From NCBI GenBank assembly GCA_051882415.1, contig JBJERU010000003.1, positions 5,273 to 69,272 on the forward strand: 64,000 nucleotides of DNA, in the 5' to 3' direction. Below the pieces are notes generated by a model. The model was not told the DNA's origin. It searched no databases and saw only the letters and a program-made list of their open reading frames with translations. A program made the position numbers and the translations under genes. How positions within the stretch are numbered: position 1 is the stretch's first letter; each line of letters opens with the position of its first letter. This DNA is from Faecalibacterium sp. (GTDB taxonomy: Bacteria; Bacillota; Clostridia; Oscillospirales; Ruminococcaceae). Positions 4,799-33,567 of the stretch are shown here, piece after piece.

Positions 4799-6568
4799 AT
4801 GGCAGAATATTTACATCCGGGTGTCTACGTGGAGGAATATGATTCGGGTGCTGTTCCCATGCAGGGCGTCAGCACCAGCACGGCGGGCTTCATCGGTCTG
4901 GCGGAAAGAGGCCCTGTGGAAGGCCAGCCCCAGCTTGTGACCAGCTTTGCGGATTACAAGAGAATGTACGGCGGCTATCTGAGCGAGGCCAAGTATGGCG
5001 CAGGGCGCTACCTGCCCTATGCGGTGGAGCAGTTCTTCCTGAACGGCGGCTCTCGCGCGTATATCATGCGCGCCGCGGCCAGCGGCAGCAAGCCTGCCTC
5101 CGCAGCCGCGGGCGTGCTGCACATGATGGCGGCGAACCCCGGCGAGTGGGGCAACCGCATCCGCGTAAGCATCGTCCCCTCCTCCAAAGCCAAATCTCAG
5201 GTTCTGTCCGCAAAAGGAGCCGAGCTGACCCTGAAGAATCCCGATGGCTTCCAGCCGGGCGATGTGGTCGAGCTGTTCGACGGCACCAACACGGCCCACG
5301 CAACGGTGAAATCGGTGTTGGATCATATCGTCACGCTGGACGGCGTGCCCACTGTGAACATCGTGGATCCGAAGGTCGGCACCTCCAAATATATCCGCAC
5401 CTGTGAGCTGACCGTGACGGTCCGCGTGGACGGTATGGAAGAGGTCTTTGCAGACGTCAGCCTGAACTCCTTTGCCAACAACTACATCGGTGTGCGCGCC
5501 GCAAAGTCGGAGCTGATCCGCTTCTCGGTCCGCCCCGCTCCGGTCCCGGCGGTCAAAGAGCCTGTCCAGAAGGACAAGGACGACAAGGAGACGAAGCCTG
5601 CTGCGCCCGCTCCGGCGCGCAGCATCCTGCCTTTCCATGAGGTGGGCGGTGCCGATGGAACACTGACGGTCGCGCTGGATGGCGGTTCGGACGGCAGCAC
5701 CCTGTCGGTATCGGCGGACGTCTATCTGGGCGAGGACAACGGCCCGGGCCGCCGCACCGGACTGCAGGCCTTTATCGAGAACAGCAATGTTTCCATCATG
5801 GCCATCCCCGGCGTGACCGACGCCAATGTGCAGGCCGCGCTGATCGCTTTCTGCGAGAACAAAGCCAGCTGCTTTGCCATCCTGGATCTGCCGCAGGATC
5901 TCAAGCGCACCAATGAGGTGGCCGACTTCCGCAACATGTACGACAGCACCTATGCGGCAGTCTATCACCCCTGGCTGGAGATGTTCGATGCGGGCAGCCG
6001 CCGCACGGCCTATTTCCCGCCCTCTGGTGCCATGGCAGGCATCTACGCCCGGGTCGATACCGAGCGCGGCGTGCATAAAGCTCCGGCCAACGAGATCGTC
6101 CGCGGCTGCACGGGCCTTTCCTGCAGCTACAACGACGCGGAGCAGGATATCCTGAATCCGCAGGGCGTCAACCTGATCCGTGCCTTCACCGGCCGCGGCA
6201 TCCGCGTCTGGGGCGCACGCACCATCAGCTCCAATGGTCTGTGGAAGTACATCAACGTCCGCCGCCTGTTCATCTACATCGAGCAGTCCATCAAGAACAA
6301 TACCAACTGGGTCGTCTTTGAGCCGAACAGCGAGGTGCTGTGGGGCCGCGTGACCCGCACCATCGAGTCCTTCCTGGCCACCTGCTGGCGGGATGGCGCG
6401 CTGGCCGGTACGACCCCGGAGCAGGCCTATTATGTGGAGTGCGGCCCCACCACCATGACCCAGGACGATATCGACAACGGCCGTCTGATCTGCAACATCG
6501 GCATCGCGCCGGTCAAGCCCGCCGAGTTCGTGATCTTCCGCATCACGCAGAAGACCGCTTCTGAATGA
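4799..6568 (+). CDS. Contractile tail sheath protein (Afp2/3/4-like)
   Basis: MAEYLHPGVYVEE N-terminus, PPSGAMAG, GVHKAPANE, LNPQGVN, VWGARTI, YINVRR, VFEPN, APVKPAEFVIFRI. Confidence 0.97.
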   Translation: MAEYLHPGVYVEEYDSGAVPMQGVSTSTAGFIGLAERGPVEGQPQLVTSFADYKRMYGGYLSEAKYGAGRYLPYAVEQFFLNGGSRAYIMRAAASGSKPASAAAGVLHMMAANPGEWGNRIRVSIVPSSKAKSQVLSAKGAELTLKNPDGFQPGDVVELFDGTNTAHATVKSVLDHIVTLDGVPTVNIVDPKVGTSKYIRTCELTVTVRVDGMEEVFADVSLNSFANNYIGVRAAKSELIRFSVRPAPVPAVKEPVQKDKDDKETKPAAPAPARSILPFHEVGGADGTLTVALDGGSDGSTLSVSADVYLGEDNGPGRRTGLQAFIENSNVSIMAIPGVTDANVQAALIAFCENKASCFAILDLPQDLKRTNEVADFRNMYDSTYAAVYHPWLEMFDAGSRRTAYFPPSGAMAGIYARVDTERGVHKAPANEIVRGCTGLSCSYNDAEQDILNPQGVNLIRAFTGRGIRVWGARTISSNGLWKYINVRRLFIYIEQSIKNNTNWVVFEPNSEVLWGRVTRTIESFLATCWRDGALAGTTPEQAYYVECGPTTMTQDDIDNGRLICNIGIAPVKPAEFVIFRITQKTASE

Positions 6569-6597
6569 TCTTGTACTGAGGAAAGGACGAGAAAGCA

Positions 6598-7083
6598 ATG
6601 GCAATCAATTATCCTTATCGCGTATTTCGGTATCAGGTCTCCACAGGAGGCATCGCCCGTGCCGGTTTCTCGGAGGTCTCCGGCATGAATATGTCCGTCG
6701 CCACGGTGGAATACCGCGAGGGCGATGACCTGCGCAACACCCCGCGCAAGCTGCCCGGCCTGACCACCTTTGGCAATGTGACGCTGCGCTGGGGCGTGAC
6801 GGATGACTCTGATTTCCTCACCTGGCTGCACTCGGTGGCCCCGGACAACACCGCAGGCCCCACCGGGATCACCCGCTATGATGTCACCATCACCCTGCTG
6901 GATGATGCGGGCAACGCGTCCGGCCCGGTCTGGACCCTCATTAATGCCTGGCCGGTCTCCTACACCATCCCGGATCTGTCCGGTATGGGCAACGAGATCG
7001 CCATCCAGTCCATCGAGCTGTGCCACGAGGGTATCTGGATGACCACCACCGGCAGCACGGCAGGCCCGGCCTCTACCATTTAA
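6598..7083 (+). CDS. Major tail tube protein (T4 gp19 / Afp1-like)
   Basis: AGFSEVSG, VEYREG, RKLPG, NVTLRWG, NAWPV, IELCHEG; directly follows sheath. Confidence 0.95.
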   Translation: MAINYPYRVFRYQVSTGGIARAGFSEVSGMNMSVATVEYREGDDLRNTPRKLPGLTTFGNVTLRWGVTDDSDFLTWLHSVAPDNTAGPTGITRYDVTITLLDDAGNASGPVWTLINAWPVSYTIPDLSGMGNEIAIQSIELCHEGIWMTTTGSTAGPASTI

Positions 7084-7133
7084 TATACGCTTGTTCTGCT
7101 GCGGTGCGCCGCGGCCCGGAAATGACCTGGCTC

Positions 7134-7178
7134 ACCGGAGCGGAGGCTCCTCGCGGAGGTCTCCGCTCCGGTATTTTA
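7134..7178 (+). terminator. Strong hairpin after sheath-tube genes (terminator or RNA-stabilising stem)
   Basis: ACCGGAGCGGAG ... CTCCGCTCCGGT perfect 12-bp outer stem followed by ATTTTAT. Confidence 0.7.
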
Positions 7179-7200
7179 TAAACGAAGAAAGGTTCTTTTC

Positions 7201-7560
7201 ATGCAGACCGAATTTGATTTTATGCTGCCAAAGGGGTATGTGGACGCCAACGGCGATCTCCACCGCGCCGGTAAGATGCGCCTGGCCACGGCAGCGGATG
7301 AGATCCTTCCGCTGCGCGATCCCCGTGTGCAGCAAAACCCCTCGTATTTGTCCATCATCCTGCTGTCCCGCGTGATCACCAAGCTGGGCACGCTGCCCGC
7401 TGTCAACAACAAGGTCATCGAAGATCTGTTCACGATGGATCTGGCTTATCTTCAGGATATGTACCAGCGGATCAACATGTCCGATATGCCGTCCTACCGT
7501 GTGACCTGCCCCCACTGCGGTCAGAGCCATGAGGTGCCGCTGGATTTTTTATTGGGCTAG
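7201..7560 (+). CDS. eCIS tail assembly chaperone-like protein with C-terminal CxxC
   Basis: MQTEFDFMLPKGYVD, GKMRLATAADEI, DPRV, DLAYLQDMY, CPHCG; conserved gene after the tube in eCIS loci. Confidence 0.85.
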   Translation: MQTEFDFMLPKGYVDANGDLHRAGKMRLATAADEILPLRDPRVQQNPSYLSIILLSRVITKLGTLPAVNNKVIEDLFTMDLAYLQDMYQRINMSDMPSYRVTCPHCGQSHEVPLDFLLG

Positions 7561-7745
7561 GGCTGGTACAGTATCCGCAGGACAGGCTCTATCAGGAGAT
7601 GTCCTTTCTGGCATACTACCTGCACTGGCCGATGGAAGACCTGATGAATATGGAGCATCGGGAGCGTCGGCGCTGGTGCGAAGAGGTGTCGGCCATCAAT
7701 CAGAAGCTGAACGGGACCGAACACAAAAAGATCGAGTTCAAATAA
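7545..7745 (+). CDS. DUF6760-like ORF, not in the ORF track; probably expressed as a -1 frameshift extension of the chaperone
   Basis: Reads LVQYPQDRLYQEMSFLAYYLHWPMEDLMNMEHRERRRWCEEVSAIN; frame open 7533-7745 with no ATG/GTG/TTG before 7599; overlaps slippery T TTT TTA at 7545-7551. Confidence 0.82.
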   Translation, partial: FFIGLGLVQYPQDRLYQEMSFLAYYLHWPMEDLMNMEHRERRRWCEEVSAINQKLNGTEHKKIEFK

Positions 7746-7757
7746 AGGTGGGACAGG

Positions 7758-8258
7758 ATGAGTGAGTATTCGACCCGGCCGGACGGCCTTCGGGATCCGT
7801 TCCGGGCCTTTCGGTTCCGGGTGCGCATGGGCGGCAGCGGCTATATGGACGGCGGAGCCACAACGGTGGCGGCCTTTTCCCGGTGCTCCGGGATCCGGGC
7901 GGTGAGCCATGTACTGCGCATGCGCACCGGATCGGACGCGCGGGGCGTGCAGGGGATCATCCCCACCGTTGTAGAATACAGCAATGTGACGCTTTCCCGC
8001 GGGGTGGTGGCCAGCAGCGAGTTCCTGGACTGGATCTTCGACTGTATGCCCGGCTACGCCACCGGGCCGGCGGCTCCGCAGCGCCGCACCATCGATATCG
8101 CGGTGCTGGACGAGACCGGGAAGGAGGGCGTCCTCTGGACGCTGTATGGTGCGTATCCGGTGGCGTATGAGCTGACGACGCTGGATGCCAGCAGGGACGA
8201 GGTGCTGATGGAAAATCTGGAGTTCGCCTATACGGGCTTGAAGCGGAGCAGCCAGTAA
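7758..8258 (+). CDS. Tail tube paralogue (gp19-like)
   Basis: DPFRAFRFRV, AFSRCSG, YSNVTLSRG, GAYPV, LEFAYTG. Confidence 0.88.
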   Translation: MSEYSTRPDGLRDPFRAFRFRVRMGGSGYMDGGATTVAAFSRCSGIRAVSHVLRMRTGSDARGVQGIIPTVVEYSNVTLSRGVVASSEFLDWIFDCMPGYATGPAAPQRRTIDIAVLDETGKEGVLWTLYGAYPVAYELTTLDASRDEVLMENLEFAYTGLKRSSQ

Positions 8259-8282
8259 CGGGCGGAAAAGAGAGGTGCCAGC

Positions 8283-8726
8283 ATGAGCAACGATCAGATC
8301 CTGATGGAAGACTATGTTTCCGGCGCTTATTTCGATGTGATGCTGAGCGCCGCGCCTGCGGGTATGAGCGGCCGCTTTACCTCGGTCTCAGGGCTCGGGA
8401 TGGAGTTTGACTATGAGACCTATCAGGAGGGCGGCTCGATGTACCCGCGCTATTTTTTTAATAACGCCGTGCCGCAGACCCTGGTGCTGGAGCAGGGAAC
8501 CGTGACCTCGGTGGATGCATTCTCGCTTCTGGTGGCGCTGGTCAACGCAGGCCAGTCGATGCCGCTGGCCGGTACCATCATCCTCTATGACCACAGGGGC
8601 CGGCCGATGCGCACCTGGACCATTGCGGGTGCCCATCTGATCCGCTATATCGGGCCAAGCCTGAACAGCAATGATGTGCAGCTTGCCGTCACGCGGATCG
8701 AGCTGCTGTATGGAGGCTGTACCTGA
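8283..8726 (+). CDS. Tail tube paralogue (gp19-like, Afp5-like)
   Basis: FTSVSGL, YQEGG, LVLEQG, GPSLNS, IEL motifs; TGATG overlap with next gene. Confidence 0.85.
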   Translation: MSNDQILMEDYVSGAYFDVMLSAAPAGMSGRFTSVSGLGMEFDYETYQEGGSMYPRYFFNNAVPQTLVLEQGTVTSVDAFSLLVALVNAGQSMPLAGTIILYDHRGRPMRTWTIAGAHLIRYIGPSLNSNDVQLAVTRIELLYGGCT

Positions 8727-11700
8727 TGGATCTGAGTACATACGTCCGGCGGGATATCTCCGGCATCCGCCGGGATCTTTTGCCGCTGTCGGGGTTCGGG
8801 CTTTTGTCACACGCGCTGTCCGAGGAGATCGCGGCGCGCAATCTGGCGTCCGAGGGATTTTATCGCAGCGCCGAGATGGAATTTCTCACCGAAGCGGAGC
8901 CGGAAGCAGCGCCGGAGCCGCGTCCTGCGCCCCGCAGGGCGGAGCCGCTCCGACTGGATCTGACGCTGCTGCTGAAGCTGGTACAACAAAGCGGACAGCC
9001 GCCGCTGACCGCAGGAAGCGAAAAGCTTCTGGAACGAGTGCGCACGATCCTTGTGACCGATGCGGGAAAACGGCCCGTATCCGGCCCGGCATCGCGCACC
9101 GCGTCCCGCCCGGCAGTCCGTCAGCTCCAGACTATGGAACTGGAGCTGCGCGGCGGCGCAGGGGGTCGGATGCGCAGCCCGCTGCGTGACCCCAGAGTGC
9201 CGATCACGCTGGCTCGGCAGGAGAACGCCCCCCGCGAGGTAGCACGTGCCTCTGACCATGCGATGCGTTTCGCCGATGTTCTGCGCCGCGCACAGGGTGA
9301 AGGGCTGACCTTTGCCACGGTGAAAGGCGGTGTGCCGCGCTCGGCTCAGACCCGCACAGCGTATCAGAATGCCCAGCAGACTAGGATCCGTCCGGCGCAG
9401 GCCGGGGAGGAACGGGACGGCCGCCCGGTATGGCAGCGGCATTCCCCGAAAGAAGGGAGCAATGCCCGGGAGCAGACCCAGAACTTTCCCCGGCAGGAGG
9501 CGGAACGACAGATGCCCTCACGGAACGGACTACCGGAGTCTCCCTTTGCGCCGCGCTACGCGGAGACGGAATTGCAGCTTGCGCAGGATACTCCGCTGAC
9601 CGAAGCGGCCGCTCATCCCACAGAGCCGCGCTTTGCCCGGGATGCCGCGCAGTCTCTGCGTGATGCCGCCGCTGTTCTGACCGAAAGCGCAGCTGCGGCG
9701 CTGCGGGAGATTCATTCTGAATCGCCTGCCGCACAATCGCCTGCCGCGCAGAAAGATGCTTCCCAAAAACTGCAAACGCAGAGTGTTGGGCTAGTGGAAA
9801 ACGCAGCTCCCTCACCCATGCGGCAAAAAGCAGAGCCTTGGCAGGCACCGGCACAGCCGCCTTTGGAAAGTACCGGGACTATGGCAAACAAGGCAAAAGA
9901 ATCTCCGCTTCAAAAAGAGGATGCCGGGGAGCGCTCGATTCCCGAAAAGCAGGATTCTCCAAAGCTGGAAAGACCGGCTGAAAACGAACTGCCCAGACGT
10001 TCCGCTTTGCGGGTGGATCGGAGCTTTTCCGCCGCAGAAACCGCGTCGGCAGAGACGCTGTTTGCGCCGCGCTACGCGGAGACGGAATTGCAGCTTGCGC
10101 AGGATACCCTGCCGACCCAAGATGCCGCGCATTCTGCGGAGCCGCGCTTTGCCCGGGAAGCCGCGCAGTCCCTGCGGGAAGCCGCCGCTGTCCTGACCGA
10201 AAGCACAGCTGCGGCCCTGCGGGAGATTCATTCTGAATTGCCTGCCGCGCAATCGCCTGCCGAGCAGAAAGATGCTTCCCAAAAACTGCAAACGCAGAGT
10301 GTTGGGCTAGTGGAAAACGCAGCTCCCTCACCCATGCGGCAAAAAGCAGAGCCTTGGCAGGCACCGGCACAGCCGCCTTTGGAAAGTACCGGGACTATGG
10401 CAAACAAGGCAAAAGAATCTCCGCTTCAAAAAGAGGATGCCGGGGAGCGCTCGATTCCCGAAAAGCAGGATTCTCCAAAGCTGGAAAGACCGGCTGAAAA
10501 CGAACTGCCCAGACGTTCCGCTTTGCGGGGGGACCGGAGCTTTTCCGCCGCAGAAACCGCATCGGCCGAGACGCTGTTTGCGCCGCGCTATGCGGAGACG
10601 GAATTGCAGCTTGCGCAGGATACTCCGCTGACCGAAGCGGCCGCTCATCCCACAGAGCCGCGCTTTGCCCGGGATGCCGCGCAGTCTCTGCGTGATGCCG
10701 CCGCTGTCCTGACCGAAAGCGCAGCTGCGGCCCTGCGGGAAACGGTGCCAGAGTTGACCCGCGCAGCAGTGCAGGCAACGGTACAAAATCAGGAATATCC
10801 CACAAAAAAGGATCGTTTGACAGCGGGACTGCTTTCCGCACAGATCCAACTCCCCCCACGGGAGAGCAGCTCCCGCCAGCAGACGGTACCGGAAAAAGAT
10901 TTCGCTTCGATCTCTGTGCCGGAGCAGCGCCCGGCGGCTTCGACAGCGGAACGGCCCGCGTTGATGCGCAGCGCAGAGTCAAAAAATGCGGACGTGCTTT
11001 TTTCTCCGCTTCGCGGAGAAGCAAGCCTGTCTGAACTGGAAGGGCTGCAAGCCGTTGAATGGCCCCCGGCTCCAGGGTATGGCAAAACGGTGCTGGAGCA
11101 TCGGACGGAAGGCCCCTCTCCGATGGAGAAGGATGTCCCGGTCACAGGACGCAGGGGAGACGCAGAGCCTTCTGCCCTGCTATGGCTGGGCCAAAAGATC
11201 GCCGGGAATGCCGCGCGGGAGCTTGCAAAAATGCAGGTGGTCTCCGCCGGTCGTAGGAGCCTGTCAGGGGCAGTTCTGCCCCAACAGCAGCCGTCTGTTT
11301 TCAGGACGGAGCTGCCGCTCTCCATCGGTCAGCCGCTGCGGTCTTTTGGGATGGTGCATCCCATGCAGCCGGGAGTGTCTGGCACAGCAGTGGCGCGGAG
11401 GGGAGAATCCCCGGCGGAGCTGATCTACATCAGCCCGGAGCAGTCCACAGAGGCATCGTCAGCGGCGGCTGGGGCGGAGGGGCTTGTCCGGACGCTGGAT
11501 CGCCTGCTGAGAACGCACAAATCCATGCGTCCGCGGGAGCTTCGCACCCTGAGCCGGAAAATCGAGCAGAACAGCCGTGCGCAGCGGGAGATGGGACATC
11601 TTTCCAAGCCGGTACAGATCCCCCATCCCGCAGAGCTGCCGGAGCTTCGCTATCAGACCGGCAGGCCGGAGCTGGAAACGATGCTCCCGGCGCGGGGGTC

Positions 11701-12151
11701 TGTCCGCCCGGCGGGGGCTGAGGATACGCTGGAGGCCCAGCAGGTCTATCCCGCGCTCGCCATGGAGTACAGCAGTCCGCTGACCCGCATGGAGGAGCAG
11801 CTCCAGACGGCCGTTGCCCGTCAGATGGAGCTGTCCGCCCGGCCCATCGGCACACAGACCGGGGCAGGGCAGTATATGGCCGGAAAAGCTTCCCCCGAGA
11901 GCATCAAGACGCTGGATCAGATGTCCCCGCCGCCCGCGTCCGGGCAGGTGGTGTGGCAGAATCCCTATCTGCGCGCCGCCCCCTCCGAGATGACCTATCG
12001 CCAGAAAAAGCAGCCGCCGGAGCCGCCTGCCTCCGCGCCGCGCCCGCAGCCGCTGCGGGTGAGCGATGCGGAGCTTCGGCGCATGGCAGATCAGGTGTTC
12101 CGTCTGGTCAAGGATTCCATCCGGCAGGAGCGCCGCAAAATGGGCCTTTGA
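8726..12151 (+). CDS. Large low-complexity eCIS protein with 172-aa repeats (tape-measure candidate)
   Basis: 1141 aa, rich in A/E/P/R/S; C-terminal LRRMADQVFRLVKDSIRQERRKMG resembles the motif ending the gene that precedes the LysM tube initiator in eCIS loci. Confidence 0.7.
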   Translation: MDLSTYVRRDISGIRRDLLPLSGFGLLSHALSEEIAARNLASEGFYRSAEMEFLTEAEPEAAPEPRPAPRRAEPLRLDLTLLLKLVQQSGQPPLTAGSEKLLERVRTILVTDAGKRPVSGPASRTASRPAVRQLQTMELELRGGAGGRMRSPLRDPRVPITLARQENAPREVARASDHAMRFADVLRRAQGEGLTFATVKGGVPRSAQTRTAYQNAQQTRIRPAQAGEERDGRPVWQRHSPKEGSNAREQTQNFPRQEAERQMPSRNGLPESPFAPRYAETELQLAQDTPLTEAAAHPTEPRFARDAAQSLRDAAAVLTESAAAALREIHSESPAAQSPAAQKDASQKLQTQSVGLVENAAPSPMRQKAEPWQAPAQPPLESTGTMANKAKESPLQKEDAGERSIPEKQDSPKLERPAENELPRRSALRVDRSFSAAETASAETLFAPRYAETELQLAQDTLPTQDAAHSAEPRFAREAAQSLREAAAVLTESTAAALREIHSELPAAQSPAEQKDASQKLQTQSVGLVENAAPSPMRQKAEPWQAPAQPPLESTGTMANKAKESPLQKEDAGERSIPEKQDSPKLERPAENELPRRSALRGDRSFSAAETASAETLFAPRYAETELQLAQDTPLTEAAAHPTEPRFARDAAQSLRDAAAVLTESAAAALRETVPELTRAAVQATVQNQEYPTKKDRLTAGLLSAQIQLPPRESSSRQQTVPEKDFASISVPEQRPAASTAERPALMRSAESKNADVLFSPLRGEASLSELEGLQAVEWPPAPGYGKTVLEHRTEGPSPMEKDVPVTGRRGDAEPSALLWLGQKIAGNAARELAKMQVVSAGRRSLSGAVLPQQQPSVFRTELPLSIGQPLRSFGMVHPMQPGVSGTAVARRGESPAELIYISPEQSTEASSAAAGAEGLVRTLDRLLRTHKSMRPRELRTLSRKIEQNSRAQREMGHLSKPVQIPHPAELPELRYQTGRPELETMLPARGSVRPAGAEDTLEAQQVYPALAMEYSSPLTRMEEQLQTAVARQMELSARPIGTQTGAGQYMAGKASPESIKTLDQMSPPPASGQVVWQNPYLRAAPSEMTYRQKKQPPEPPASAPRPQPLRVSDAELRRMADQVFRLVKDSIRQERRKMGL
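9545..10741 (+). repeat. 516-bp in-frame tandem repeat (~2.3 copies)
   Basis: TTTGCGCCGCGCTA (FAPRYAETELQLAQDT) starts at 9545, 10061 and 10577; long near-identical stretches between copies. Confidence 0.95.
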
Positions 12152-12241: not shown

Positions 12242-12967
12242 TTGCATGTCGGCGTGAACAATGTTAACCTGCTCTGCCCGGTCGCCAAGCTGAAGATCAA
12301 GAATCTAAGCAGCAAAAAATCCTTTTCGGTGCTGTACAATCCCCAGTCCTACAGCATCGAGCGCGGCGTCCGATACAGCGAGCAGGCTGGTCTGGATACC
12401 AACGCTCCCAGCGTGCAGTTCATCAACGGCTCGGCCGAGACGCTGCACATGGAGCTGTTTTTTGATTCCTTTTCGGCAGGTGCGGAGGTCGGCGGTTCTC
12501 TGGCCGACCGCGCCAAATTCACCGGCAACAGCGTGCTGCCCTCGGCGGCAAAGCAGCTCGACGTCCGCAAATACACCAGCAAGGTCTATGACCTCATGCT
12601 CATCGACCCCAGCCTGCATGTGCCGCCGCTGCTCAAGCTGGAATGGTCGTCCCTGCAGTTTGAGGGCCACCTCATTTCCTGCAAGCAGAATTTTACCAAG
12701 TTCAACGAGCGCGGCGTGCCGGTGCGCGCAAAGCTGGACTGCGTTTTTCGGCAGTACATCAAGCCCAGTGAGATCGCAAAGCTGGAACCGGTGGGATCCC
12801 CGGATACGGCCAAGTTCCGCACGGTCTGCGAGGGCGATTCCTTGTGGGCGATCGCGGCGCGGGAATACGGCCAGAGCAGCCTGTGGCGGGAGATCGCGCG
12901 GGTCAACGGCATCGAGAACCCACGCCAGCTTGAGACCGGCATGGTGCTCCAGATCCCGGCGCTGTGA
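12242..12967 (+). CDS. CIS tube initiator with LysM domain (Afp7-like)
   Basis: VLYNPQSYS, LFFD, PPLLKLEW, GVPVRA, C-terminal GDSLWAIAAREYG...NGIENP LysM; TTG start after AAGGAGG. Confidence 0.93.
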   Translation: MHVGVNNVNLLCPVAKLKIKNLSSKKSFSVLYNPQSYSIERGVRYSEQAGLDTNAPSVQFINGSAETLHMELFFDSFSAGAEVGGSLADRAKFTGNSVLPSAAKQLDVRKYTSKVYDLMLIDPSLHVPPLLKLEWSSLQFEGHLISCKQNFTKFNERGVPVRAKLDCVFRQYIKPSEIAKLEPVGSPDTAKFRTVCEGDSLWAIAAREYGQSSLWREIARVNGIENPRQLETGMVLQIPAL

Positions 12968-12994
12968 GCGATACAGGAAAGGAGAGCCAACACA

Positions 12995-14122
12995 ATGGGC
13001 GGTTTTGATGCCAGCGGATCCTATTCCTTTGCCAGCCTGGAGAAAAAATACAGCAGCTTTCTTTCCCCTACGGTTCGGATCGAGGTCGGCGGCTTCCAGC
13101 TGGGCAGCGGCGCGATCCCGGTCACGGAGGTCCGGGTGGAGCTGACCACCGAGAACCGGGCCGGAAGCTGCCAGTTCACGCTGGATTCCCTGTACGATTA
13201 TGAGACCGGCAAATGGTCCAAGGGTCTGCTGGAGAGCATCGACGTTGCCCAGCTCGTTGAGGTGGAGCTGGGCTATGCCGAATCCCAGAAGCGGGTCTTT
13301 TACGGCTATGTGGACCGCTACCGGGTGGAGTATACGGCATCCGGCGCGCCCCGCCTGACGGTGTATGCGCTGGACGGGCTGGGTGTGCTGATGGCCGACC
13401 GGGAAAAGCTGGACTTCGGCCAGAAAAAGACCAATGACGTGGTAAGGGAGATCCTTTCCCGGTGCCAGGCCTCCGGCGTGGCGGAAAAGGTGTCCATGGA
13501 CTCGCTCCCCGTGTTCGAGGCGCCGCTGCTCAAGGAAAAGGGATGCAGCTCCTACGAGTTTTTGTGCCGGATGGCAGAGATGAGCTTTATGAGCTTTTGC
13601 ATCATCAACGGGGAGCTGATGTTCAAGAACCTGATGAAGAATACCAAAACACTGCTCACGCTGACCATTGGGCAGGATCTCCAGGAGTTCAGCCGGGAGG
13701 TCAGCTTCAACAGCAGCACGGTGGGTTCGGTCACGGTCATCAGCTGCGGCTCGGTGGACAAAAAAGAGCTGCGCGGCGTGGCCCACAGCCCCAGCCGCTT
13801 TGGTGCGTCGGGCAAAACCGGCGCCGAGAAATGGGCCGCGCTGGGGGAGGCCTCCAACAAGGATATCGTGATCAACTCGCTCCAGACCGAGCAGGAATGC
13901 GAGCAGATCGCCCAGAACATCCTGGACGGCATGAGCCTGGGCTTTTCGGCGGGCGGCGGGCGCTGTCTGGGCCTGCCGGAGCTGTGCCCGGGACGCTATG
14001 TAGAGGTCAAGGGGCTGGACAAGGCTGCAAACGGCAGCTATTTTGTGACAAAAGTGACCCACACCTTTTCGGAGAGCGGGTACACGACAGAATTTGAGGT
14101 CAAGGGGTTTCGCAGTAAATGA
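12995..14122 (+). CDS. Baseplate hub, phage late control D / gp27-like (VgrG N-terminal half)
   Basis: VEVELGY, FYGYV, SSYEFLCRMA, GLPELCPG, GSYFVTKVTH; synteny. Confidence 0.88.
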   Translation: MGGFDASGSYSFASLEKKYSSFLSPTVRIEVGGFQLGSGAIPVTEVRVELTTENRAGSCQFTLDSLYDYETGKWSKGLLESIDVAQLVEVELGYAESQKRVFYGYVDRYRVEYTASGAPRLTVYALDGLGVLMADREKLDFGQKKTNDVVREILSRCQASGVAEKVSMDSLPVFEAPLLKEKGCSSYEFLCRMAEMSFMSFCIINGELMFKNLMKNTKTLLTLTIGQDLQEFSREVSFNSSTVGSVTVISCGSVDKKELRGVAHSPSRFGASGKTGAEKWAALGEASNKDIVINSLQTEQECEQIAQNILDGMSLGFSAGGGRCLGLPELCPGRYVEVKGLDKAANGSYFVTKVTHTFSESGYTTEFEVKGFRSK

Positions 14123-14910
14123 ACAGCCGATACGATCCATTTTCCAATACCTTCGCGCTGGACGAGCTTCAGAAAAGCATGCAGCGGGTGGGCCTGACGC
14201 TGGCCAAAGTGACCAACATCACCGACCCGAAGGAGCTGAACCGGGTGCGCTGCCGCCCCGTTGCAGGGGAGAGCGAAACGGATATTCTGGAAACCGACTG
14301 GTGTCCGGTGGTGCAGCCGCTTTCCGGCAAGGGCTGCGGACAGTACTTTATGCCCAGCGTGGACGATCTGGTGCTGCTGGCCTATCTGAACGGCGACCCG
14401 CATTGTCCCTATGTGATGGGCGGCGTGTGGAACCAGGATTCGGCTGCGCCCTATACCCTCAAGGAGGGCAAGAACCTGAACTTTTCGATCCGGACGCCGG
14501 GCGGTGCGGAGCTGCTGTTCTACGACGAAAAGGAGAAGGAGACCATCACGCTCAAGACGCCCAAGGGCGCACAGCTCAAGCTGGACGACGCCGGGCAGGA
14601 GGCGACCTTGCAGGATCCGGAAAGCAAAAACAGCCTCAGGATGAACTGGAAGGACGGCGGCATCACGCTCCACGCGGAAAAAAAGCTGATCCTTTCGGCG
14701 GGCGATACCACCATCACGCTGGAAAGCTCCGGCGCGCTGACGGTAAAGGCCGGCGGCAAGATCGAGGTCAAGGGCGCGGAGATCGAGCAGACCGCCACCA
14801 ACGGCTTCAAGGCCAAGGGTGCCTCCGCCAATGTGGAGGCGGACGGCAAGCTGACGCTGAAGGGCGCTTCGGCTGACCTGAAGGGCAGCGCGGGCGTGAA
14901 TATCAACTGA
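14119..14910 (+). CDS. Spike protein, gp5 / baseplate assembly protein V (VgrG C-terminal half)
   Basis: OB-fold AKVTNITDP, FMPSVDDLVLLAY..GDP..PYVMGGVWN followed by beta-helix repeats ending VNIN. Confidence 0.93.
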   Translation: MNSRYDPFSNTFALDELQKSMQRVGLTLAKVTNITDPKELNRVRCRPVAGESETDILETDWCPVVQPLSGKGCGQYFMPSVDDLVLLAYLNGDPHCPYVMGGVWNQDSAAPYTLKEGKNLNFSIRTPGGAELLFYDEKEKETITLKTPKGAQLKLDDAGQEATLQDPESKNSLRMNWKDGGITLHAEKKLILSAGDTTITLESSGALTVKAGGKIEVKGAEIEQTATNGFKAKGASANVEADGKLTLKGASADLKGSAGVNIN

Positions 14911-14965
14911 GAAAACGGCTTCTGGAGCCGGAGGCCGGAAAGCCCCGGCCAGGGGAGGGGATCCG

Positions 14966-15382
14966 ATGGACAACAGGGATTTTTTGGGCCGCGGGCTGAG
15001 CTTTCCGCTTCGTCTCGACCCCCGGACAGGACGTTTTGCGGTCAGCAGCCACGAACAGAGCATCCGGGAATCGGTGGGCATCATTTTGGGCACCTATCGG
15101 GGCGAACGGGTCATGCGCCCGGAGTTTGGGGCAAACACGGCGGATTATGCCTTCGCTCCCTCGGATTCCTCGCTGCAGGAGAGCATCGCCTACGACCTGC
15201 AGCGGCAGCTCGTGTTGCAGGAGCCGCGCATCCGCGATATCGAAGTCACCTGTGAGGAGCCGTCCCGTCAGACAGGGACACTGGTGGTGCATGTATCTTA
15301 TACGGTGCGCAGCACGAACAATCGCTTCAATCAGGTCTATCCGTTCTATACACAGGGCAGCCAGCCGGAAGAGGAAGAATGA
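14966..15382 (+). CDS. GPW/gp25 baseplate protein (Afp9-like)
   Basis: FLGRGLSFP, GERVMRPEFG, EPRI, TNNRFNQVYPFY. Confidence 0.96.
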   Translation: MDNRDFLGRGLSFPLRLDPRTGRFAVSSHEQSIRESVGIILGTYRGERVMRPEFGANTADYAFAPSDSSLQESIAYDLQRQLVLQEPRIRDIEVTCEEPSRQTGTLVVHVSYTVRSTNNRFNQVYPFYTQGSQPEEEE

Positions 15383-15385
15383 GCT

Positions 15386-18295
15386 ATGAAAGTACCCATC
15401 CTGGACACCCGCAGCAAAGCGCAGATCATGGAGCAGTTTGCACGTCTGGCGGCGGGATATCTGTCGGAGTGGCATTATGACGGCGACCCCTCTGACCCGG
15501 CAGCCGCGCTGGGGGAGCTGTTCGGCGAGATGTTTTATCAGACGGTGGATCGCTTCAACGCAGTGCCGCAAAAGCTGCATACGGAATTTTTGAACCTTCT
15601 GGGCGTGGAGCGCGGCCCGCAGCATCCGGCAGCGGGCGTGATCCAGTTCCAGGTGCATGAGGGCGTAGAGGAGCGCGTGACCATCCCCGGGGGAACCATG
15701 GTCTATGCGCAGGATGAAAAAGACGAGAACATCGTATATGAAACGGTGCGGACGATCGAGGCGACTCCCGCCCGGCTGGAGGATATCTGGTTCTCCAGCA
15801 AGGACGGCGCGGTGATCCAGCGGCTGGATCTGAGCCGTCCGCAGCCCTTTTTCCGTCCTGCAGAGGCGGAAAACCTGCAGATGCATCGGTTTTCCTTTGT
15901 GCAGAACGATGTCCTGCGCGGCAGCGTGCCCTGCCGGATCGAAGTGACGCTGGAGACCGCGAACCGCCAGCTCAGTGTTCGTCTGGCCCAAAGGCTGGCG
16001 GATCCGGAGTTTGCGCGCTGGAGCTGGCCCGGCGCACAAGGGCCGGTCCCGTTTACCGAGGTCACGGCGGAGGACGGTGTCCTCTGCCTGCACAAGACGC
16101 AGACGGCTCCGCTGATCCCCGATGAAAACGGCGACCTGTGGCTGGAATGCCGGATGCAGGCGGCCCCCGGCAGCGTAATCGTGGACGGCCTGCGGGTGCG
16201 CAGCGTCTCCGATCAGCCCGTTGCGGCACAGCGGCTGCTGCAGGGCGATATCCCCATCCGGCCGGAAGAAGGCGGGTACTGCTTTGGCCGCCGCCCGGCG
16301 GTGTACGATCTGTTTTATATCCGCTCCGATGAGGTGTTCAGCAAACGGGGCGCACAGGCGATGCTCCGGTTCGAGCTGGAGCCGGTGGTCTGGTCGCTGG
16401 TGCAGCCGGGGCCGCAGTACGATTTTACCCGGATGATCGTGGACAAGAACGACACCGTGACCATAAAGACAGACGATGTCTTTGTGCGCGGCGTGGTGTG
16501 GGAGTATTACAACGGCGTCGGCTGGACCGAGCTGCCGGTGCAGGGCAGCCGCAACCCCTTCTCCTGCCAGTCGGACGCGCCGCAGGAGCTGCGGTTCCGG
16601 ATCCCGTCCGACCTGTGCCCGGTGGAGCTGGAGGCGCAGGAGGGCCGGTATATCCGTGCCCGGGTGACTTCCATTGAAAATGAGTTTTCGCCTCTGCCGC
16701 GCTGGGTCGTCCCCTTTGTGCGGCAGGTGGAATGCAGCTGGCACTACGCCGAGCCGTGCCCGATCCAGCGGCTGCGCACCCGGAACAATGCTTCCTCCAC
16801 CGAGCTGGAAACGGCCGGGCTGCGGCAGCTGAACGCGGCGCTGTATGCCAATTTTGAAGCGCCTGTCCCGGCGGAATACCTTCGCTTTGACCGCTCGCCG
16901 GACGGCCTGCCCATCGCCCTGACCTTCGACCTGCCGGGACATGCCGCCACGCGCAGCAAGATCCTGTATGAAGCGTGGAATGGAACGCGCTTTGAGCAGG
17001 TGCGGACGGTGGACGAGACCCGGAACCTGGAATATTCCGGCCAGGTCTACCTGTATCTGCCCCAGCCCCTGCCCCGGGCGGTATTTTTCGGGCAGGAAGG
17101 CTGCTGGCTGCGCATGAGCATGAGCGAGCTGCCCATCCATCAGGTGCTGCCGACGGTAGGTTCCATCCGGCTCAATACGGTCACGGCGGTGCAGCAGCAG
17201 CCCATGCCGGAACAGCGGTTCAGCACAGGAAAGTCCCCCGCGGGCCAGACCTTCCGCCTGCTCCAGGACGATGTGCTGCGCTGTGAGGTATGGGTCAACG
17301 AAAGCGGGGCGCTGTCGTCCGCAGAGCTGGCAGAGCTGCGGCAGAATGTCCCCGCAGAGCTGCGGATCGAGCGCAAGGGCGACCGGGAGCTTTGCTGGGT
17401 GCGCTGGCATCCTGTAAGCTCGCTGGCCCGGTGCGGCCCGGAGGAGCGGGCCTATGAGCTGGAGCCGGGCAGCGGGATGCTTCGGTTCGGCGATGGGCTG
17501 CATGGCCGCAGCCTTCCCTCCGGCTTTGAGACCGTCCGGGTGCAGGGGACTGTTGGCGGAGGAACGCGGGGCAATCTCCCCGCCGGGGCGGTCACGGCGT
17601 TTCTGGCGTCCATCCCCCACATCGCTTCGCTTTCCAACATCACGCCCATGAGCGGCGGCGCGGATCCGCTTTCCCAGCGGGAGCTGGAGGCGCTGGGGGG
17701 ATGCCGCTTCCGCAACCGGGATCGGGCGGTCACGGCGCAGGACTATGAGGATCTGGTGCGGCTGCACTTTCCTCAGGTCCGTCAGGTCCGATGCTTTTCC
17801 GGCATGGACGATACAGGCACCTATCGTCCCGGGCATCTCTGCGTGGTCGTGATGGGCGATACCCCGGACAACGACCGCGCTTCCTGGCAGCTGTGCCGGG
17901 AGATCCGCGACCTTTTGGAAAAGCGGTGCGACTGCACGCTGGCGGGCACCGGAAGGGTCCATGTCCGGTCGGCGGTCAGCATCACGCTGAATGTGAACAT
18001 TCAGGTATCCCTGAACGATTTTGAGCTTGCCGCCCCCACACAGCAGGAAGTTGCGGCGGCTCTGGAAGAACGGATCGAAACGGTCTGGCGCAGCCGGGGG
18101 ATCGGCAGCCAGATCGAGCTGCATGAGCTGTATACCGCGGTCAAGCAGGTCCCGAACGTGGGGGCGATCCAGCAGCTGCTGGTGGAAGGTGTATGGTACG
18201 AGAACGGTGTGCGCCGGATCCGCCCCATCGAGGAGGGCGAGGTGCATCCGTTCGCAGCGGTAAAAAGCGGGCTGCATACGGTCCGCATCGGATAA
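15386..18295 (+). CDS. Baseplate J/gp6-like wedge protein
   Basis: PILDTRS, LRFGDGLHG, GGGTRGNL, GGAD, RDRAVTAQDYE. Confidence 0.92.
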   Translation: MKVPILDTRSKAQIMEQFARLAAGYLSEWHYDGDPSDPAAALGELFGEMFYQTVDRFNAVPQKLHTEFLNLLGVERGPQHPAAGVIQFQVHEGVEERVTIPGGTMVYAQDEKDENIVYETVRTIEATPARLEDIWFSSKDGAVIQRLDLSRPQPFFRPAEAENLQMHRFSFVQNDVLRGSVPCRIEVTLETANRQLSVRLAQRLADPEFARWSWPGAQGPVPFTEVTAEDGVLCLHKTQTAPLIPDENGDLWLECRMQAAPGSVIVDGLRVRSVSDQPVAAQRLLQGDIPIRPEEGGYCFGRRPAVYDLFYIRSDEVFSKRGAQAMLRFELEPVVWSLVQPGPQYDFTRMIVDKNDTVTIKTDDVFVRGVVWEYYNGVGWTELPVQGSRNPFSCQSDAPQELRFRIPSDLCPVELEAQEGRYIRARVTSIENEFSPLPRWVVPFVRQVECSWHYAEPCPIQRLRTRNNASSTELETAGLRQLNAALYANFEAPVPAEYLRFDRSPDGLPIALTFDLPGHAATRSKILYEAWNGTRFEQVRTVDETRNLEYSGQVYLYLPQPLPRAVFFGQEGCWLRMSMSELPIHQVLPTVGSIRLNTVTAVQQQPMPEQRFSTGKSPAGQTFRLLQDDVLRCEVWVNESGALSSAELAELRQNVPAELRIERKGDRELCWVRWHPVSSLARCGPEERAYELEPGSGMLRFGDGLHGRSLPSGFETVRVQGTVGGGTRGNLPAGAVTAFLASIPHIASLSNITPMSGGADPLSQRELEALGGCRFRNRDRAVTAQDYEDLVRLHFPQVRQVRCFSGMDDTGTYRPGHLCVVVMGDTPDNDRASWQLCREIRDLLEKRCDCTLAGTGRVHVRSAVSITLNVNIQVSLNDFELAAPTQQEVAAALEERIETVWRSRGIGSQIELHELYTAVKQVPNVGAIQQLLVEGVWYENGVRRIRPIEEGEVHPFAAVKSGLHTVRIG

Positions 18296-18331
18296 ACAGA
18301 CCGGATATTTTTGCGAAAGGAGGGTGCAGGG

Positions 18332-20404
18332 ATGCTGAGACCCCGGGATCTGGACGACCAGAGTTTTGACGAGATCGTGGAGCACTCGGTGAGCAGGCTG
18401 CCGCAGCTCTGCCCGCAGTGGACCAATCACAACCCATCGGACCCAGGCATCACCCTGATCGAGCTGCTGGCATGGTACAAGGAATTACAGCAGTTCCACC
18501 TGAACGCCTATACCGACGCGATGAAGCGCAAGCTGCTCAAGCTGGCCGGGGAACGGGTGCGTTCTGCCGCCAGCGCGCGCTGCCGGGTGCGCTGGCTGAC
18601 CCCGGGGGAGGCCTGCCGCCGGGGTGCGCGGCTGGAGACCCCGGAGGGCATCGTGTTCGAGCTGGAGGAAGACATCCCCGCGCAGCCTGCAAAGATCGTG
18701 GGGGTCTATCAGAAAATTGGCGGGGAGTATGAGGACATCTTCCCTTTGTTGCAGCAGGGAAACGCCAGCGTGAGCGTCTTTGCGCCCGGCCCGGAAGGGC
18801 GCGGAGAACTGCTCATCGGGCTGGAAACGTTCGGCGCGCCAAAGATCCCGCTCTGGTTCGAGCTGGAAAGTCCCGGCGCGCCGCTCCGCAATGGATTTTC
18901 CGACCCGGCGCAGTGCCCCCGCGTCATTGCGTGGGAGCTGGAAGGCGCGGGGGCGGCGCAGATCCTTTCGGACGAGACCCACGCGCTGAGTCAGAGCGGC
19001 TTGGTCACGCTGGCGGCCCCGCCGGAGTGGAAGGAGACCCGTCCTGTGCCTCAGATGGCAAAAGCGCGCTGCCTTCGCCTCTGCCTGACCGATCCGGGGT
19101 GCGAAGAGGAGGTCGTGCTGCGCGCCGTTTCCTCCGGCTGCGGCTGGGCCGTGCAGCAGGAGACCTGGTCGGAGCTGCACCGCCTGACGGTGCCGGCCGC
19201 GCGGGATACCTGGGTGCTGTTTGGAGAGGATGCCGCTCGCGAGGGAGAATTTACGGTGTTCCTGCGCCGACAGACCGGCTGGGAGCAGTGCGGCGCACAG
19301 CGCGCGGCGCGGGGAGAGCAAGCGGGCATTCGGCTGGACAGCACCGGCGCGGTGCAGGATGGCGCGCCCAACCTGTATGTGGCCTGTTCGGATCCGATCC
19401 ATTATCAGGATCTGTTCTTTGATTCGGACGGCCTGCCGGGGCAGACGCTCCGCCTGGATCTGGGCGGGAGAAAGCTGTGCACCGACCGCTTTGTCCTGAT
19501 CTGTGATACGCTCTGCCCGGATGGGACGGTCCGTCCGCAGCTGTGGCAGTATGCGGAGGATCTGTATTCCTGCGGCCCGCGGGATCGCTGCTTCACCTAT
19601 TCGCCGGAGCGGGAGGAGATCCTCTTTGGCAATGGAGAGAACGGCGCGGTCGTGCCGCGGGGCGAGGCCGCGATCTTCCTGGCCGGGCTGGTCCTGACAG
19701 AAGGCAAGGGTGGGAACATCCCGGCAGGGGAGCGGCTCCACCTTGCGGACGGACGGGTCGTAGCCAACGACGCCTCCACAGGTGGACGGGATGAGGAGAC
19801 CACCGCCGAAGCCGCCGCGCGGCTGCTGCGCCGCATGGAGCAGGAACACCCTTGCGTCACGGCGGAGGATTACGAGGAGCTGGCCTGCGGGACGCCCGGT
19901 CTGCGGGTCGAGTCCGCCCGGGCGCTGCCCGGCTGGGATCCCAGAAGCGGCGCGGTACAGGACGGTCGGCCGGTGGTCACAGTGGCAGTCATGCCGGCAT
20001 CGCCTGCGGATAGACCTCTGCCGGATCCGCGGTTCCTGGAGGCTGTCCGGCGCAACCTCGAAACGCTGCGTCCGGTCGGCACACAGCTGTGGGTGGTTCC
20101 GCCGCGGTATGTGGGGGTCTCGCTGACGGTCCGGCTCCAGACCTCCGGCCCGATCCGGGAGCAGGAGCTTCGCCGCGCGGCGGCCCGCTGCCTGCGGGTG
20201 CGCAGGGAGGGCCGCCGCATCGGGGATCGGGTCGCGGCCTCAGACCTTGCGGCCGCGTTCCAGAAGCTGCCCGGCGTGATGGCGGTGCGCCGCGTGGAGC
20301 TGTCCTCCTCCGCGCCCGGCTGCGTCCTGACCGTGACCGGCGACCTGACGCTGCCGGGAGACGGCGCGCCGTTTTTGGAGGGATTGAGCATTTTGTCCGA
20401 TTGA
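18332..20404 (+). CDS. Putative baseplate assembly protein (second baseplate J-like, Afp11-like)
   Basis: LDDQSF, PQWTNHNPSDPGITLIEL, SDGLPGQ, FGNGENG, GGRDEET, VTAEDYE; start at ATG 18332 after AAGGAGG. Confidence 0.92.
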   Translation: MLRPRDLDDQSFDEIVEHSVSRLPQLCPQWTNHNPSDPGITLIELLAWYKELQQFHLNAYTDAMKRKLLKLAGERVRSAASARCRVRWLTPGEACRRGARLETPEGIVFELEEDIPAQPAKIVGVYQKIGGEYEDIFPLLQQGNASVSVFAPGPEGRGELLIGLETFGAPKIPLWFELESPGAPLRNGFSDPAQCPRVIAWELEGAGAAQILSDETHALSQSGLVTLAAPPEWKETRPVPQMAKARCLRLCLTDPGCEEEVVLRAVSSGCGWAVQQETWSELHRLTVPAARDTWVLFGEDAAREGEFTVFLRRQTGWEQCGAQRAARGEQAGIRLDSTGAVQDGAPNLYVACSDPIHYQDLFFDSDGLPGQTLRLDLGGRKLCTDRFVLICDTLCPDGTVRPQLWQYAEDLYSCGPRDRCFTYSPEREEILFGNGENGAVVPRGEAAIFLAGLVLTEGKGGNIPAGERLHLADGRVVANDASTGGRDEETTAEAAARLLRRMEQEHPCVTAEDYEELACGTPGLRVESARALPGWDPRSGAVQDGRPVVTVAVMPASPADRPLPDPRFLEAVRRNLETLRPVGTQLWVVPPRYVGVSLTVRLQTSGPIREQELRRAAARCLRVRREGRRIGDRVAASDLAAAFQKLPGVMAVRRVELSSSAPGCVLTVTGDLTLPGDGAPFLEGLSILSD

Positions 20405-20440
20405 TTAGGATCACTTTGGCCTGCCAGGAGGAGGCGTTTT

Positions 20441-21559
20441 ATGAAGAAAAAACAGCAGCGCCTGGTATGGTGTCTGCGTGAGCAATGGCTCTCCGCTCTG
20501 CGGTGCAATGTAGAGCTGCGGGAGGATGCGCTGGTGCTGGATACAAAGCGTTGCAGCGCGGGGCTGGTCTGTCTGCCCGCCGCAGACAGCGGCGAGGCCG
20601 GCTATGCCTGGGGACGGGTAACGCTGGACTGTGAACTGCCGCAGGGCAGTTCTCTGCGGGTGTACGCTCTGGCACTGGATGAGCGGGAAAGCTTTTGGCA
20701 GAGCCTGAGCGCATCCATGCAGGAGGCCGGGCAGGAATACGGCCAGGCGCAGCACCGGGCCGCGCAGATGTTTGGCGCCCCGGCAGGGGCAGGGGCAGGG
20801 CCGGATCTGCTTGTGGAGCAGCGAGGCCGCTACCTGTGGCTGGCCGTTGAATTCCTGTCCGGCAGTGCGGAGGATGTGATCCTCCGAAAAGTCACTTTCT
20901 GGATGGGCGGAGACCGGATGAGCGATTATCTCCCGGCGATCTATCGGGGCGACCGCACCACCGAGCGCTTTTTGGAGATCTTCCACAGCATGCTGCAGGA
21001 TCTGGAAGAGCGGATCAACGATATCCCCGCCCTCCTGGACTATGAAAATGACAGCGAGGCCATGCTGCGGTATCTGTCCGGGTGGCTGTGTCTGGACGGC
21101 AGACATGCCGACCCGCGTGAGCTGCGCCGCTGGGTGGCATCTGCCATGGAGGACGTGCGCACCATGTACACGCCCGCCGGCATCCGGCGCACCGTCCGGC
21201 GGCTGACCGGACAGGAGCCGATCCTGATCGAGTACGCGCAGGTGGATCCCAACGCCCCGGACTGCGTGGATCAGGAGACCTGCCGCCGTCTGTTCGGTGA
21301 GGATCCGTGCCGCTTTTTCGTCCTGCTGAAGGAGGATGCCTTCCAGACGCGGGAGGAGGCCCAGAGCTTTATGGACCAGATGCGGCAGCACATCCCCGCG
21401 CAGATGGAGATGCAGCTGGTGCTGCTGCGCAGCAAGATCCATCTGGGCGGGCACACCTATCTGGGCATCAATTCCACGGTCAGCGGGTTTATGCCGGCTG
21501 CGGTGGACGAGAGTACCGCGATCCACTTTGATACGGTGATAGGAGAGGAAGCAAAATGA
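20441..21559 (+). CDS. Phage tail protein I-like baseplate component
   Basis: YLPAIY, ERFLEIF, LRYLSGWL, P..IEY, IPA, YLGINS; synteny after baseplate J. Confidence 0.82.
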   Translation: MKKKQQRLVWCLREQWLSALRCNVELREDALVLDTKRCSAGLVCLPAADSGEAGYAWGRVTLDCELPQGSSLRVYALALDERESFWQSLSASMQEAGQEYGQAQHRAAQMFGAPAGAGAGPDLLVEQRGRYLWLAVEFLSGSAEDVILRKVTFWMGGDRMSDYLPAIYRGDRTTERFLEIFHSMLQDLEERINDIPALLDYENDSEAMLRYLSGWLCLDGRHADPRELRRWVASAMEDVRTMYTPAGIRRTVRRLTGQEPILIEYAQVDPNAPDCVDQETCRRLFGEDPCRFFVLLKEDAFQTREEAQSFMDQMRQHIPAQMEMQLVLLRSKIHLGGHTYLGINSTVSGFMPAAVDESTAIHFDTVIGEEAK

Positions 21560-23362: not shown

Positions 23363-24118
23363 ATGGGGCCTCTTTTGATCCGGGAACGGTACAAGGTCGT
23401 TCAGGTGCTGGACGCAGCCCCTGACTATGCAGCTCTGTGCGCGGTGGATATCCGGCAGCGGGAAAAGCCGCAGGTACTGCTCAACGTCTACGAGGGCGCC
23501 TGCCTGCGCAAATATCTGCGGCTTTACCAGGGGCTTCAGGACTGCCCGGCGTTCCAGGGCGCTTTTATCGAGCGGGGAGCGCTGGTGGCTGTGTTCCCCA
23601 TGGAGAAGGGCGTTGGCATCGACGAAGTGTTCCAGCGGGGGCTTGCGGTCCCGTGGGAGCTTCGGCTGGCGGCAGCCGACGACCTGATGGCGCAGGCTCT
23701 CCGGCTCTCCGAACTTCCGCCGGAGCTGGCCTGCCCTACGCTGCTGAGCGGACAGGTGCGGGTGTTCCCTCAGGAGCGCAGGCTCGCGCTGCGGTGGCTG
23801 GTGCGCCCGATGGACTGTGCGCTGAACGAACGGGAACTGCTGCTCCTGCTGGGCGATCAGCTCCACAAGCTGCTGCTTCCGCGCTGGGACGCGCCGCAGA
23901 CCGAGCGGGATTTTTTGTGCGAGATGGAGGCGGGGCGCTTTTCCTGTATGGTGGATCTCTACGCGCACTGGCGGGCGCTGCTCCCCCGGCTGCGGGAGGA
24001 GTATGAAACGCTGGAAGCGATGCATACGCTTTCCCGTTTTCTGCGGCTGGCAAAACGGAATGGAAAAGACGCCTTCCGGAAAGCCTTATCCCATCGGAGA
24101 AGGGAGGACGCCCGATGA
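23363..24118 (+). CDS. Hypothetical protein with probable degenerate protein-kinase-like fold
   Basis: ERYKVVQVL, VLLNVY and VFPMEKG align by eye to kinase N-lobe/hinge, but the Gly loop, catalytic Lys, HRD and DFG are absent. Confidence 0.5.
   Translation: MGPLLIRERYKVVQVLDAAPDYAALCAVDIRQREKPQVLLNVYEGACLRKYLRLYQGLQDCPAFQGAFIERGALVAVFPMEKGVGIDEVFQRGLAVPWELRLAAADDLMAQALRLSELPPELACPTLLSGQVRVFPQERRLALRWLVRPMDCALNERELLLLLGDQLHKLLLPRWDAPQTERDFLCEMEAGRFSCMVDLYAHWRALLPRLREEYETLEAMHTLSRFLRLAKRNGKDAFRKALSHRRREDAR

Positions 24119-31425: not shown

Positions 31426-33567
<2,142 letters not shown>

Follow-up and report, generated by a model that had tools for sequence, protein, structure and literature searches.

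Downstream of the tube gene in an eCIS locus of Faecalibacterium sp., two reading frames overlap at a run of six T residues and the second of them lacks a conventional start codon. This raises the question of whether the two frames are separate genes or whether some ribosomes shift from the first into the second, as at the tail assembly chaperone genes of long-tailed phages, where the frameshift that produces the proteins G and GT is textbook knowledge. A sequence-only reading of the window (the whole stretch of 64,000 nucleotides analysed here) had proposed such a G/GT-like pair, and we compared the junction with those of its relatives.

The first ORF, G (7201–7560, on the forward strand like the other junction features and eCIS genes named below), encodes a tail-assembly-chaperone-like protein of 119 aa that carries a CxxC zinc ribbon at its C-terminus. 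Its 3' end (7543–7560) reads GAT TTT TTA TTG GGC TAG in the frame of the ORF, which places the slippery heptamer T TTT TTA at 7545–7551. The -1 frame carries a TGA at 7530–7532 and is then open from 7533 to the TAA at 7743–7745. This frame, T (7533–7745), matches DUF6760 (PF20546, E 3e-14) and is predicted to extend GT at its C-terminus; slippage on T TTT TTA would yield a fusion of 117 + 64 = 181 aa. Between 7533 and the YP motif of T there is no ATG, GTG or TTG codon; a CTA lies over the G stop and a CTG at 7563, while the first ATG (7599) is located inside the conserved motif and would truncate T. The phased heptamer, the start-less DUF6760-like frame and the truncating ATG had all been pointed out in the sequence-only reading and were found as described. 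Of the 275 Leu codons that seven other eCIS genes of the window contain, just 2 are TTA, and the probability of GAT TTT TTR calculated from the codon usage of the window's other eCIS genes is 0.012. As a control, 62 of the 1620 long ORFs of the same genome carry a phased heptamer within their last 12 codons. A promoter and terminator scan found neither at the G/T junction, and a look-up of transcripts over 6400–8400 listed none, which is uninformative in either direction.

G and T are thus two overlapping ORFs immediately 3' of a tube gene (6598–7083; PF06841, E 3e-39), which is preceded by the sheath gene (4799–6568; PF04984, PF17482). T is followed by two extra tube-family genes (7758–8258 and 8283–8726; PF06841) and by an ORF for a low-complexity protein of 1141 aa (8726–12151; recognized by composition and 516-nt repeats) that occupies the tape-measure slot ahead of the tube initiator. 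The tube initiator/LysM, hub, spike, two baseplate J genes and a P2-I-like gene occupy 12242–21559, and two eCIS marker genes, a Pvc16-like terminator (29708–30316; PF14065, E 4e-25) and an AAA ATPase (31426–33567; AAA family matches), lie further downstream. The lineage II gene set (sheath, tubes, LysM initiator, hub/spike, baseplate J, Afp16-like terminator and AAA ATPase) is therefore complete in the window, and from gene content alone, compared with PMC6899500, the system is assigned to eCIS lineage II. The same gene set is described for lineage II eCIS/PLTS such as the Streptomyces coelicolor CIS in Chen 2019 (PMC6899500) and Sarris 2014 (PMC4122934), and the two baseplate J genes with a split hub/spike fit subtype IIa or IIc. 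In long-tailed phages the frameshift lies between the tube and tape-measure genes; the pair in the window follows the tube gene but does not directly precede the tape-measure slot, since two tube genes intervene. Large ORFs are present among and after the eCIS genes (24115–29692 and 33604–40304), encoding a HAMP-domain protein, a 900-aa MORN-repeat protein, a HAMP/phosphatase-like protein and two proteins of 781 and 725 aa without family matches; these are possible regulators or cargo. A Crp/Fnr-family regulator is encoded upstream of the eCIS operon (1318–2211).

A search with the DUF6760 motif pattern in 2 of 64 parts gave 119 genome loci, from which we estimate about 5100 overall. G was found upstream of T in 116 of them, the remaining three having only 141–300 nt of flank, and T was in the -1 frame relative to G in 111 of the 116, in +1 in three and in frame 0 in two. 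In a G-anchored search, in which the best 80 of 360 metagenome loci were examined, T was found downstream in 77 of these best 80 and always in -1 (77/77). Two of the other three contigs end or become unrelated sequence after the heptamer and the third is an in-frame read-through with several apparent indels. Among 301 genomes of the same phylum, eight including the window's own carry DUF6760, all eight in -1. Pooled and de-duplicated, 146 of 151 junctions are in -1, covering 11 named phyla and one Planctomycetota record; the three archaeal loci are all in -1, with the heptamer present and no start. Of the five unique junctions in another frame, three (L020, L052 and L124) have their own ATG or GTG and two resemble indel errors. 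The relatives counted are not independent, and because the loci were anchored on G or T, the share of all eCIS that carry a G/T pair is not readable from these counts.

The constancy of this offset bears on the possibility that the overlap reflects misassembly or one gene that has been broken. With 109 contigs the genome is a draft, and homopolymers are error-prone, but the same offset recurs at 146 unique junctions, isolate genomes included, and the heptamer at 7545–7551 is spanned by contigs of four out of four independent runs with no listed indel. A weak search for clean natural G–T fusions returned 1 + 26 matches, all of them single-contig records, and those examined, the first and 18 of the 26, are apparent indel errors, with garbled frames, or members of a clade with its own start codon (see below). 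The conserved offset and the independent runs refute an artefact or a broken gene for practical purposes.

The frame offset is accompanied by a slippery heptamer, defined as X XXY YYZ (Y = A/U) or G GGG GRN within the last 12 codons of G; these classes were set after inspection of the data and applied equally to the controls. A phased heptamer is present at 139 of the 146 unique -1 junctions compared to 22.4 +/- 4.2 expected from synonymous recoding with matched codon usage, in 66 of 71 junctions of a subset below 75% identity (10.4 expected) and in only 1 of 144 T-gene ends. The alignment of eCIS junctions proposed in the sequence-only reading thus showed both the -1 overlap and the heptamer to be shared. 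Three types occur across the family, U6N, A3U4 and G5RN, and in each the codon choice is constrained: GAT TTT TTR is found in 31 of 32 D-F-L/I junctions, NTA AAT TTT in 22 of 22 x-N-F junctions, and in x-G-E junctions Gly is encoded by GGG in 76 of 80 against a background of 17–25%. GGGGGAA is the commonest heptamer (63/146) and is the same as the 'fivetwo' motif of SEA-PHAGES actinophage chaperones, as given in PMC10885494. The distance from heptamer to T motif is kept, being 32 nt in 61 of the 63 GGGGGAA junctions, and this register holds while the position of the G stop shifts (0, 3 or 15 nt behind the heptamer). On the G tree, the U/A-rich heptamers form one group (84/85 support), suggesting that the heptamer site was likely exchanged under a constant frame. 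The recoding signal at G/T junctions is real, and its conservation is strong.

The same product could also arise by transcriptional slippage, in which RNA polymerase would insert an extra base at the T run, giving an mRNA that is read in frame as GT. The site in the window is indeed a homopolymer run, but of only six T residues; efficient transcriptional slippage usually requires a run of about 8–9. Moreover, the family also uses AAATTTT and GGGGGAA, all heptamers are phased to the codons, and the hairpin described below lies at a ribosome-like spacing. Slippage of the polymerase is therefore very unlikely to be the explanation.

Translational coupling is a real rival, since a 4-nt NTGA overlap yields the same -1 relation. 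Ribosomes would stop at the end of G and restart at an overlapping start codon (GTG or ATG in NTGA, otherwise a near-cognate ATA, CTG or GTA), making a separate DUF6760 protein. Counting the 12 codons before the YP motif, and so leaving starts farther up long linkers uncounted, 76 of the 146 -1 junctions are without ATG, GTG or TTG and 70 have one. Random frames with separate starts, which would speak against a frameshift, are not the rule among homologous junctions. The starts that do occur lie mostly over TGA and their presence follows the type of stop (56 of 62 TGA junctions compared to 14 of 84 TAA/TAG junctions); ATA lies over the stop in 32 junctions. Restart at these codons would fit coupling, but any stop codon gives an NTA or NTG when the -1 frame is read, and such codons are thus expected without any restart. 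At the annotated T start, 41 of 74 G5 loci have GTG, while 15 different codons are used by the others, GTG exchanging with GTA, ATA, ATC and others. Coupling can also draw on the SD-like nature of GGGGGAR, but it leaves unexplained why the U6N and A3U4 heptamers, which are not SD-like, are kept at synonymous sites.

The spacing between the two genes provides a further view of this alternative. In nine loci (L108, L129, L132, L136, L138, L140, L142, L145 and L146), the heptamer is separated from DUF6760 by a linker of 41–53 codons, mostly Pro-rich, with no downstream hairpin. In the seven linkers of equal length, mismatches over the first 13 codons after the stop are distributed 22/47/103 by codon position of the -1 frame and fall mostly in the third, while the first start codon is located at codon 15 or later. 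A constraint on -1-frame codons is therefore visible 5' of all starts. In favour of coupling, one clade (100/97 support) of four loci (L020, L045, L052 and L060) lacks both the heptamer and the CxxC and provides T with an ATG of its own; T can apparently work alone in these. The frameshift appears to have been lost or never gained in this own-start actinobacterial subfamily, and actinobacteria may use a mixed mode of shift with some restart. The subfamily, in which G lacks the zinc ribbon and has a long tail, also includes L124 by resemblance, a locus left out of the tree. As a general account of the junction, coupling is improbable, and a frameshift at the heptamer is the reading followed below.

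Hairpins downstream of the heptamer were examined in three classes (with 32, 44 or 47 nt between heptamer and T motif), in all of which the stem starts 5–7 nt 3' of the heptamer. Compared to synonymous recoding of T, the mean Z is -2.74 for the G5 hairpin (n = 49; 39 below -1.65), -1.86 for U6 (n = 18; 11 below -1.65) and -1.52 for A3U4 (n = 17; 9 below -1.65), against 0.03, -0.98 and -0.30, respectively, in control segments 66 nt downstream. The would-be start of the coupling model is covered by this hairpin. G5 hairpins split into two registers, and RNAalifold gave no single consensus hairpin over the G5 set. No hairpin was seen at 11 loci, seven with long linkers and four others. In the window, a 7-bp stem that includes the G stop is predicted at 7558–7591 (7558–7564 with 7585–7591), 6 nt 3' of the heptamer; at -9.5 kcal/mol and Z +1.5 it is no stabler than its synonymous controls. 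Its pairing is kept in 88.9% of cells in 18 relatives as compared to 26–52% for slid registers, with covariation in the same relatives not significant (28–71 of 500 shuffles, four of five measures). An SD-like TGAGGTG (7530–7536), located 8 nt 5' of the heptamer and forming a duplex of -9.3 kcal/mol with the anti-SD, is a possible upstream stimulator in the window. As a conserved stimulator, the upstream SD is unsupported, with a family mean Z of only -0.5 to -1.0.

Both halves of the pair show likeness to phage proteins. G matches the tail assembly chaperone family phrog_508 (E 4.6e-6), and at relaxed cut-offs 11 of 66 G members match Mu gp41 (PF23746) and 9 of 66 match Phage_TAC_7. The structure model of G (pLDDT 87.7) is closest to YqbN (Z 7.0, rmsd 4.3, 90 aligned), followed by the HK97 chaperone (2ob9; Z 6.0, with 5.4–6.0 across comparisons, rmsd 3.7, 82 aligned). 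A fold comparison among 48,161 chains gave similar ranks, with Z at or below 4.2 from rank 4 on. Among viral models, T4-like baseplate hub assembly proteins and Mu FS-gp41 (prob 1.0, TM 0.52) were matched. A Foldseek comparison with the PDB gave no match at E <= 0.001. With these middling scores (Z 5–7), the model of G resembles the tail-chaperone fold, which it would share with the lambda gpG/gpGT, HK97 and Mu gp41 chaperones at low identity (7–18%). For the helix and CxxC end of G there is a weak alignment to T4 gp26 (prob 50, E 1.7e-4), although gp26-like proteins of the T4 gp26/gp51 hub assembly chaperones are about twice the length of eCIS G, and T gave no match to gp51. The T profile aligns with P2 gpE' (prob 87.5, E 3.6e-6), whose family PF06528 ranks second in frequency among the matches of T members (13 of 58 at relaxed cut-off), and an unguided tblastn of T gave a weak match to a P2-like E' region (E 0.6).

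Phage P2, with gpE and gpE+E' (PF10109, PF06528), shares with the eCIS the order sheath-tube-G-T, the -1 frame and a U6N heptamer near the G stop. Its annotated -1 shift occurs at T TTT TTG, a heptamer found in 13 eCIS junctions. In contrast to P2, the window's system is host-encoded and its locus yielded no capsid genes, its T has no annotated tape measure behind it, and eCIS G has a CxxC zinc ribbon and a profile that is not alignable with gpE. The G/GT-like pair of the sequence-only reading is thus strengthened by the conserved frame and heptamer and by the phage likeness of both halves, with the fusion itself standing as a prediction.

The slippery run and the frame offset are kept in bacteria and archaea alike, which suggests that some ribosomes likely slip by -1, and we consider it highly probable that a programmed -1 frameshift at the G/T junction yields GT. 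In the window, G (119 aa) and GT (181 aa) would likely be made from one mRNA. A minority of ribosomes would slip one base back at U UUU UUA by a tandem tRNA slip and enter the start-less DUF6760 frame; in most relatives the stem-loop 5–7 nt downstream is predicted to raise the slip rate, an effect that would be weak in the window copy. The absence of clean fixed G–T fusions fits a need for both forms.

What G and GT do, and for which client, is put forward with less confidence than the frameshift and by analogy with phages. In the lambda model, the tape measure is coated by G while tube subunits are brought in by T, and the ratio of G to GT is about 30:1 (PMC5009743). By extension from lambda and P2, many G would coat an extended ruler protein, the rarer GT would link the ruler to tube subunits and start tube polymerisation, and both would then leave the particle. 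A complex prediction for T with the tube protein scored 0.00 against a mark of 0.32, giving no answer and being uninformative either way. The likely client would be the low-complexity protein of 8726–12151, a candidate we infer from its position, or another tape-measure-like cargo. This ORF is rich in Ala, Arg, Glu and Pro, has three repeat copies at 516-nt spacing and gave no Pfam, PHROG or NCBIfam match. In eight of nine fetched loci, T or the extra tube genes are followed by an ORF of 500–1408 aa that shares a similar basic motif at the C-terminus, and in seven the next ORF resembles a tube initiator by eye. Tme, in the same slot of S. davawensis, has been argued to be tape-measure-related (Nagakubo 2024, PMC11126660). 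Sle1, whose gene sits upstream of the sheath gene (10.1101/2025.11.06.686954), is another possible client.

Lineage II eCIS are described as generally lacking Afp14 (PMC6899500) and the S. coelicolor particles as uniformly 268 nm long, from a cluster said to lack a tape measure (PMC12237407). A G/GT pair matters in this lineage precisely because the tape measure, the client of G/GT, is said to be missing. We offer tentatively, at slightly less than even chances, that DUF6760-bearing eCIS (about 5100 genome stretches from a dozen or more phyla of bacteria and archaea) retain G/GT to load the slot-ORF ruler, which would be the missing length determinant of lineage II. On this account, the frameshift would be kept because the tube is built on a ruler, and would set the ratio of the loading chaperones. 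The conserved pair would then predict a ruler-like client and name a candidate for it, which bears on length control in eCIS. It also offers a function for two unexplained eCIS genes, DUF6760 and the SCO4251-type G. SCO4251 of the S. coelicolor CIS is called a protein of unknown function in PMC10020575, and we infer from gene order that it is G. By implication, in thousands of loci the likely tail of a fusion has been annotated as a gene of its own, and re-cloning an operon as separate genes would not preserve the G:GT ratio. Few host-encoded -1 frameshifts are known in prokaryotes, and this would add a widespread one common to bacteria and archaea.

The mechanism is known, and it is the setting in eCIS that is new. 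The sequence-only reading had been unaware of any emphasis on such a frameshift in eCIS; in agreement, our literature search, whose scope ended before the main supplement of PMC3711429 and subscription papers, found no report of a G/GT frameshift in eCIS, and 'DUF6760' was absent from the literature searched. By term search, 'frameshift' is absent from the main text of PMC10020575, 10.1101/2022.08.09.503279, PMC6899500, PMC8213781, PMC11566945, PMC12237407, PMC10286715, 10.1101/2025.11.06.686954, PMC11126660 and PMC4122934, and likewise from that of PMC12998442 and PMC12210884. 'Mu-gp41-like' ORFs have been noted in some eCIS clusters, with gp41 tabulated as a helicase (Sarris 2014, PMC4122934). 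An HK97-like chaperone cluster was tested at 6–7% in PMC3711429, and the cluster list of that study may include the G family. Papers on tailocins and gene-transfer agents contain the word 'frameshift', so a host-encoded precedent is likely.

Searches for the pair in phages returned little: none of 11 G candidates in IMG/VR was confirmed, tblastn of phages gave weak matches only, a P2 gpE scan recovered near-identical copies only and was set aside, and G gave no profile match to P2 gpE. In Streptomyces phage LuckySocke (L210, OR725497.1, 2833–3940), gp90 is weakly G-like (E 0.04) and is followed, in the +1 (= -2) frame, by a T-like motif (prob 49, E 1.7e-4 in a profile comparison), which begins 5' of the annotated gp91 start; BRock-like myophages may thus contain an unannotated +1/-2 frameshift. 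A Nostoc locus (L299) has a second G-like gene without the zinc ribbon after its tube genes (15039–15368), with the G/T pair located about 1 kb downstream of it.
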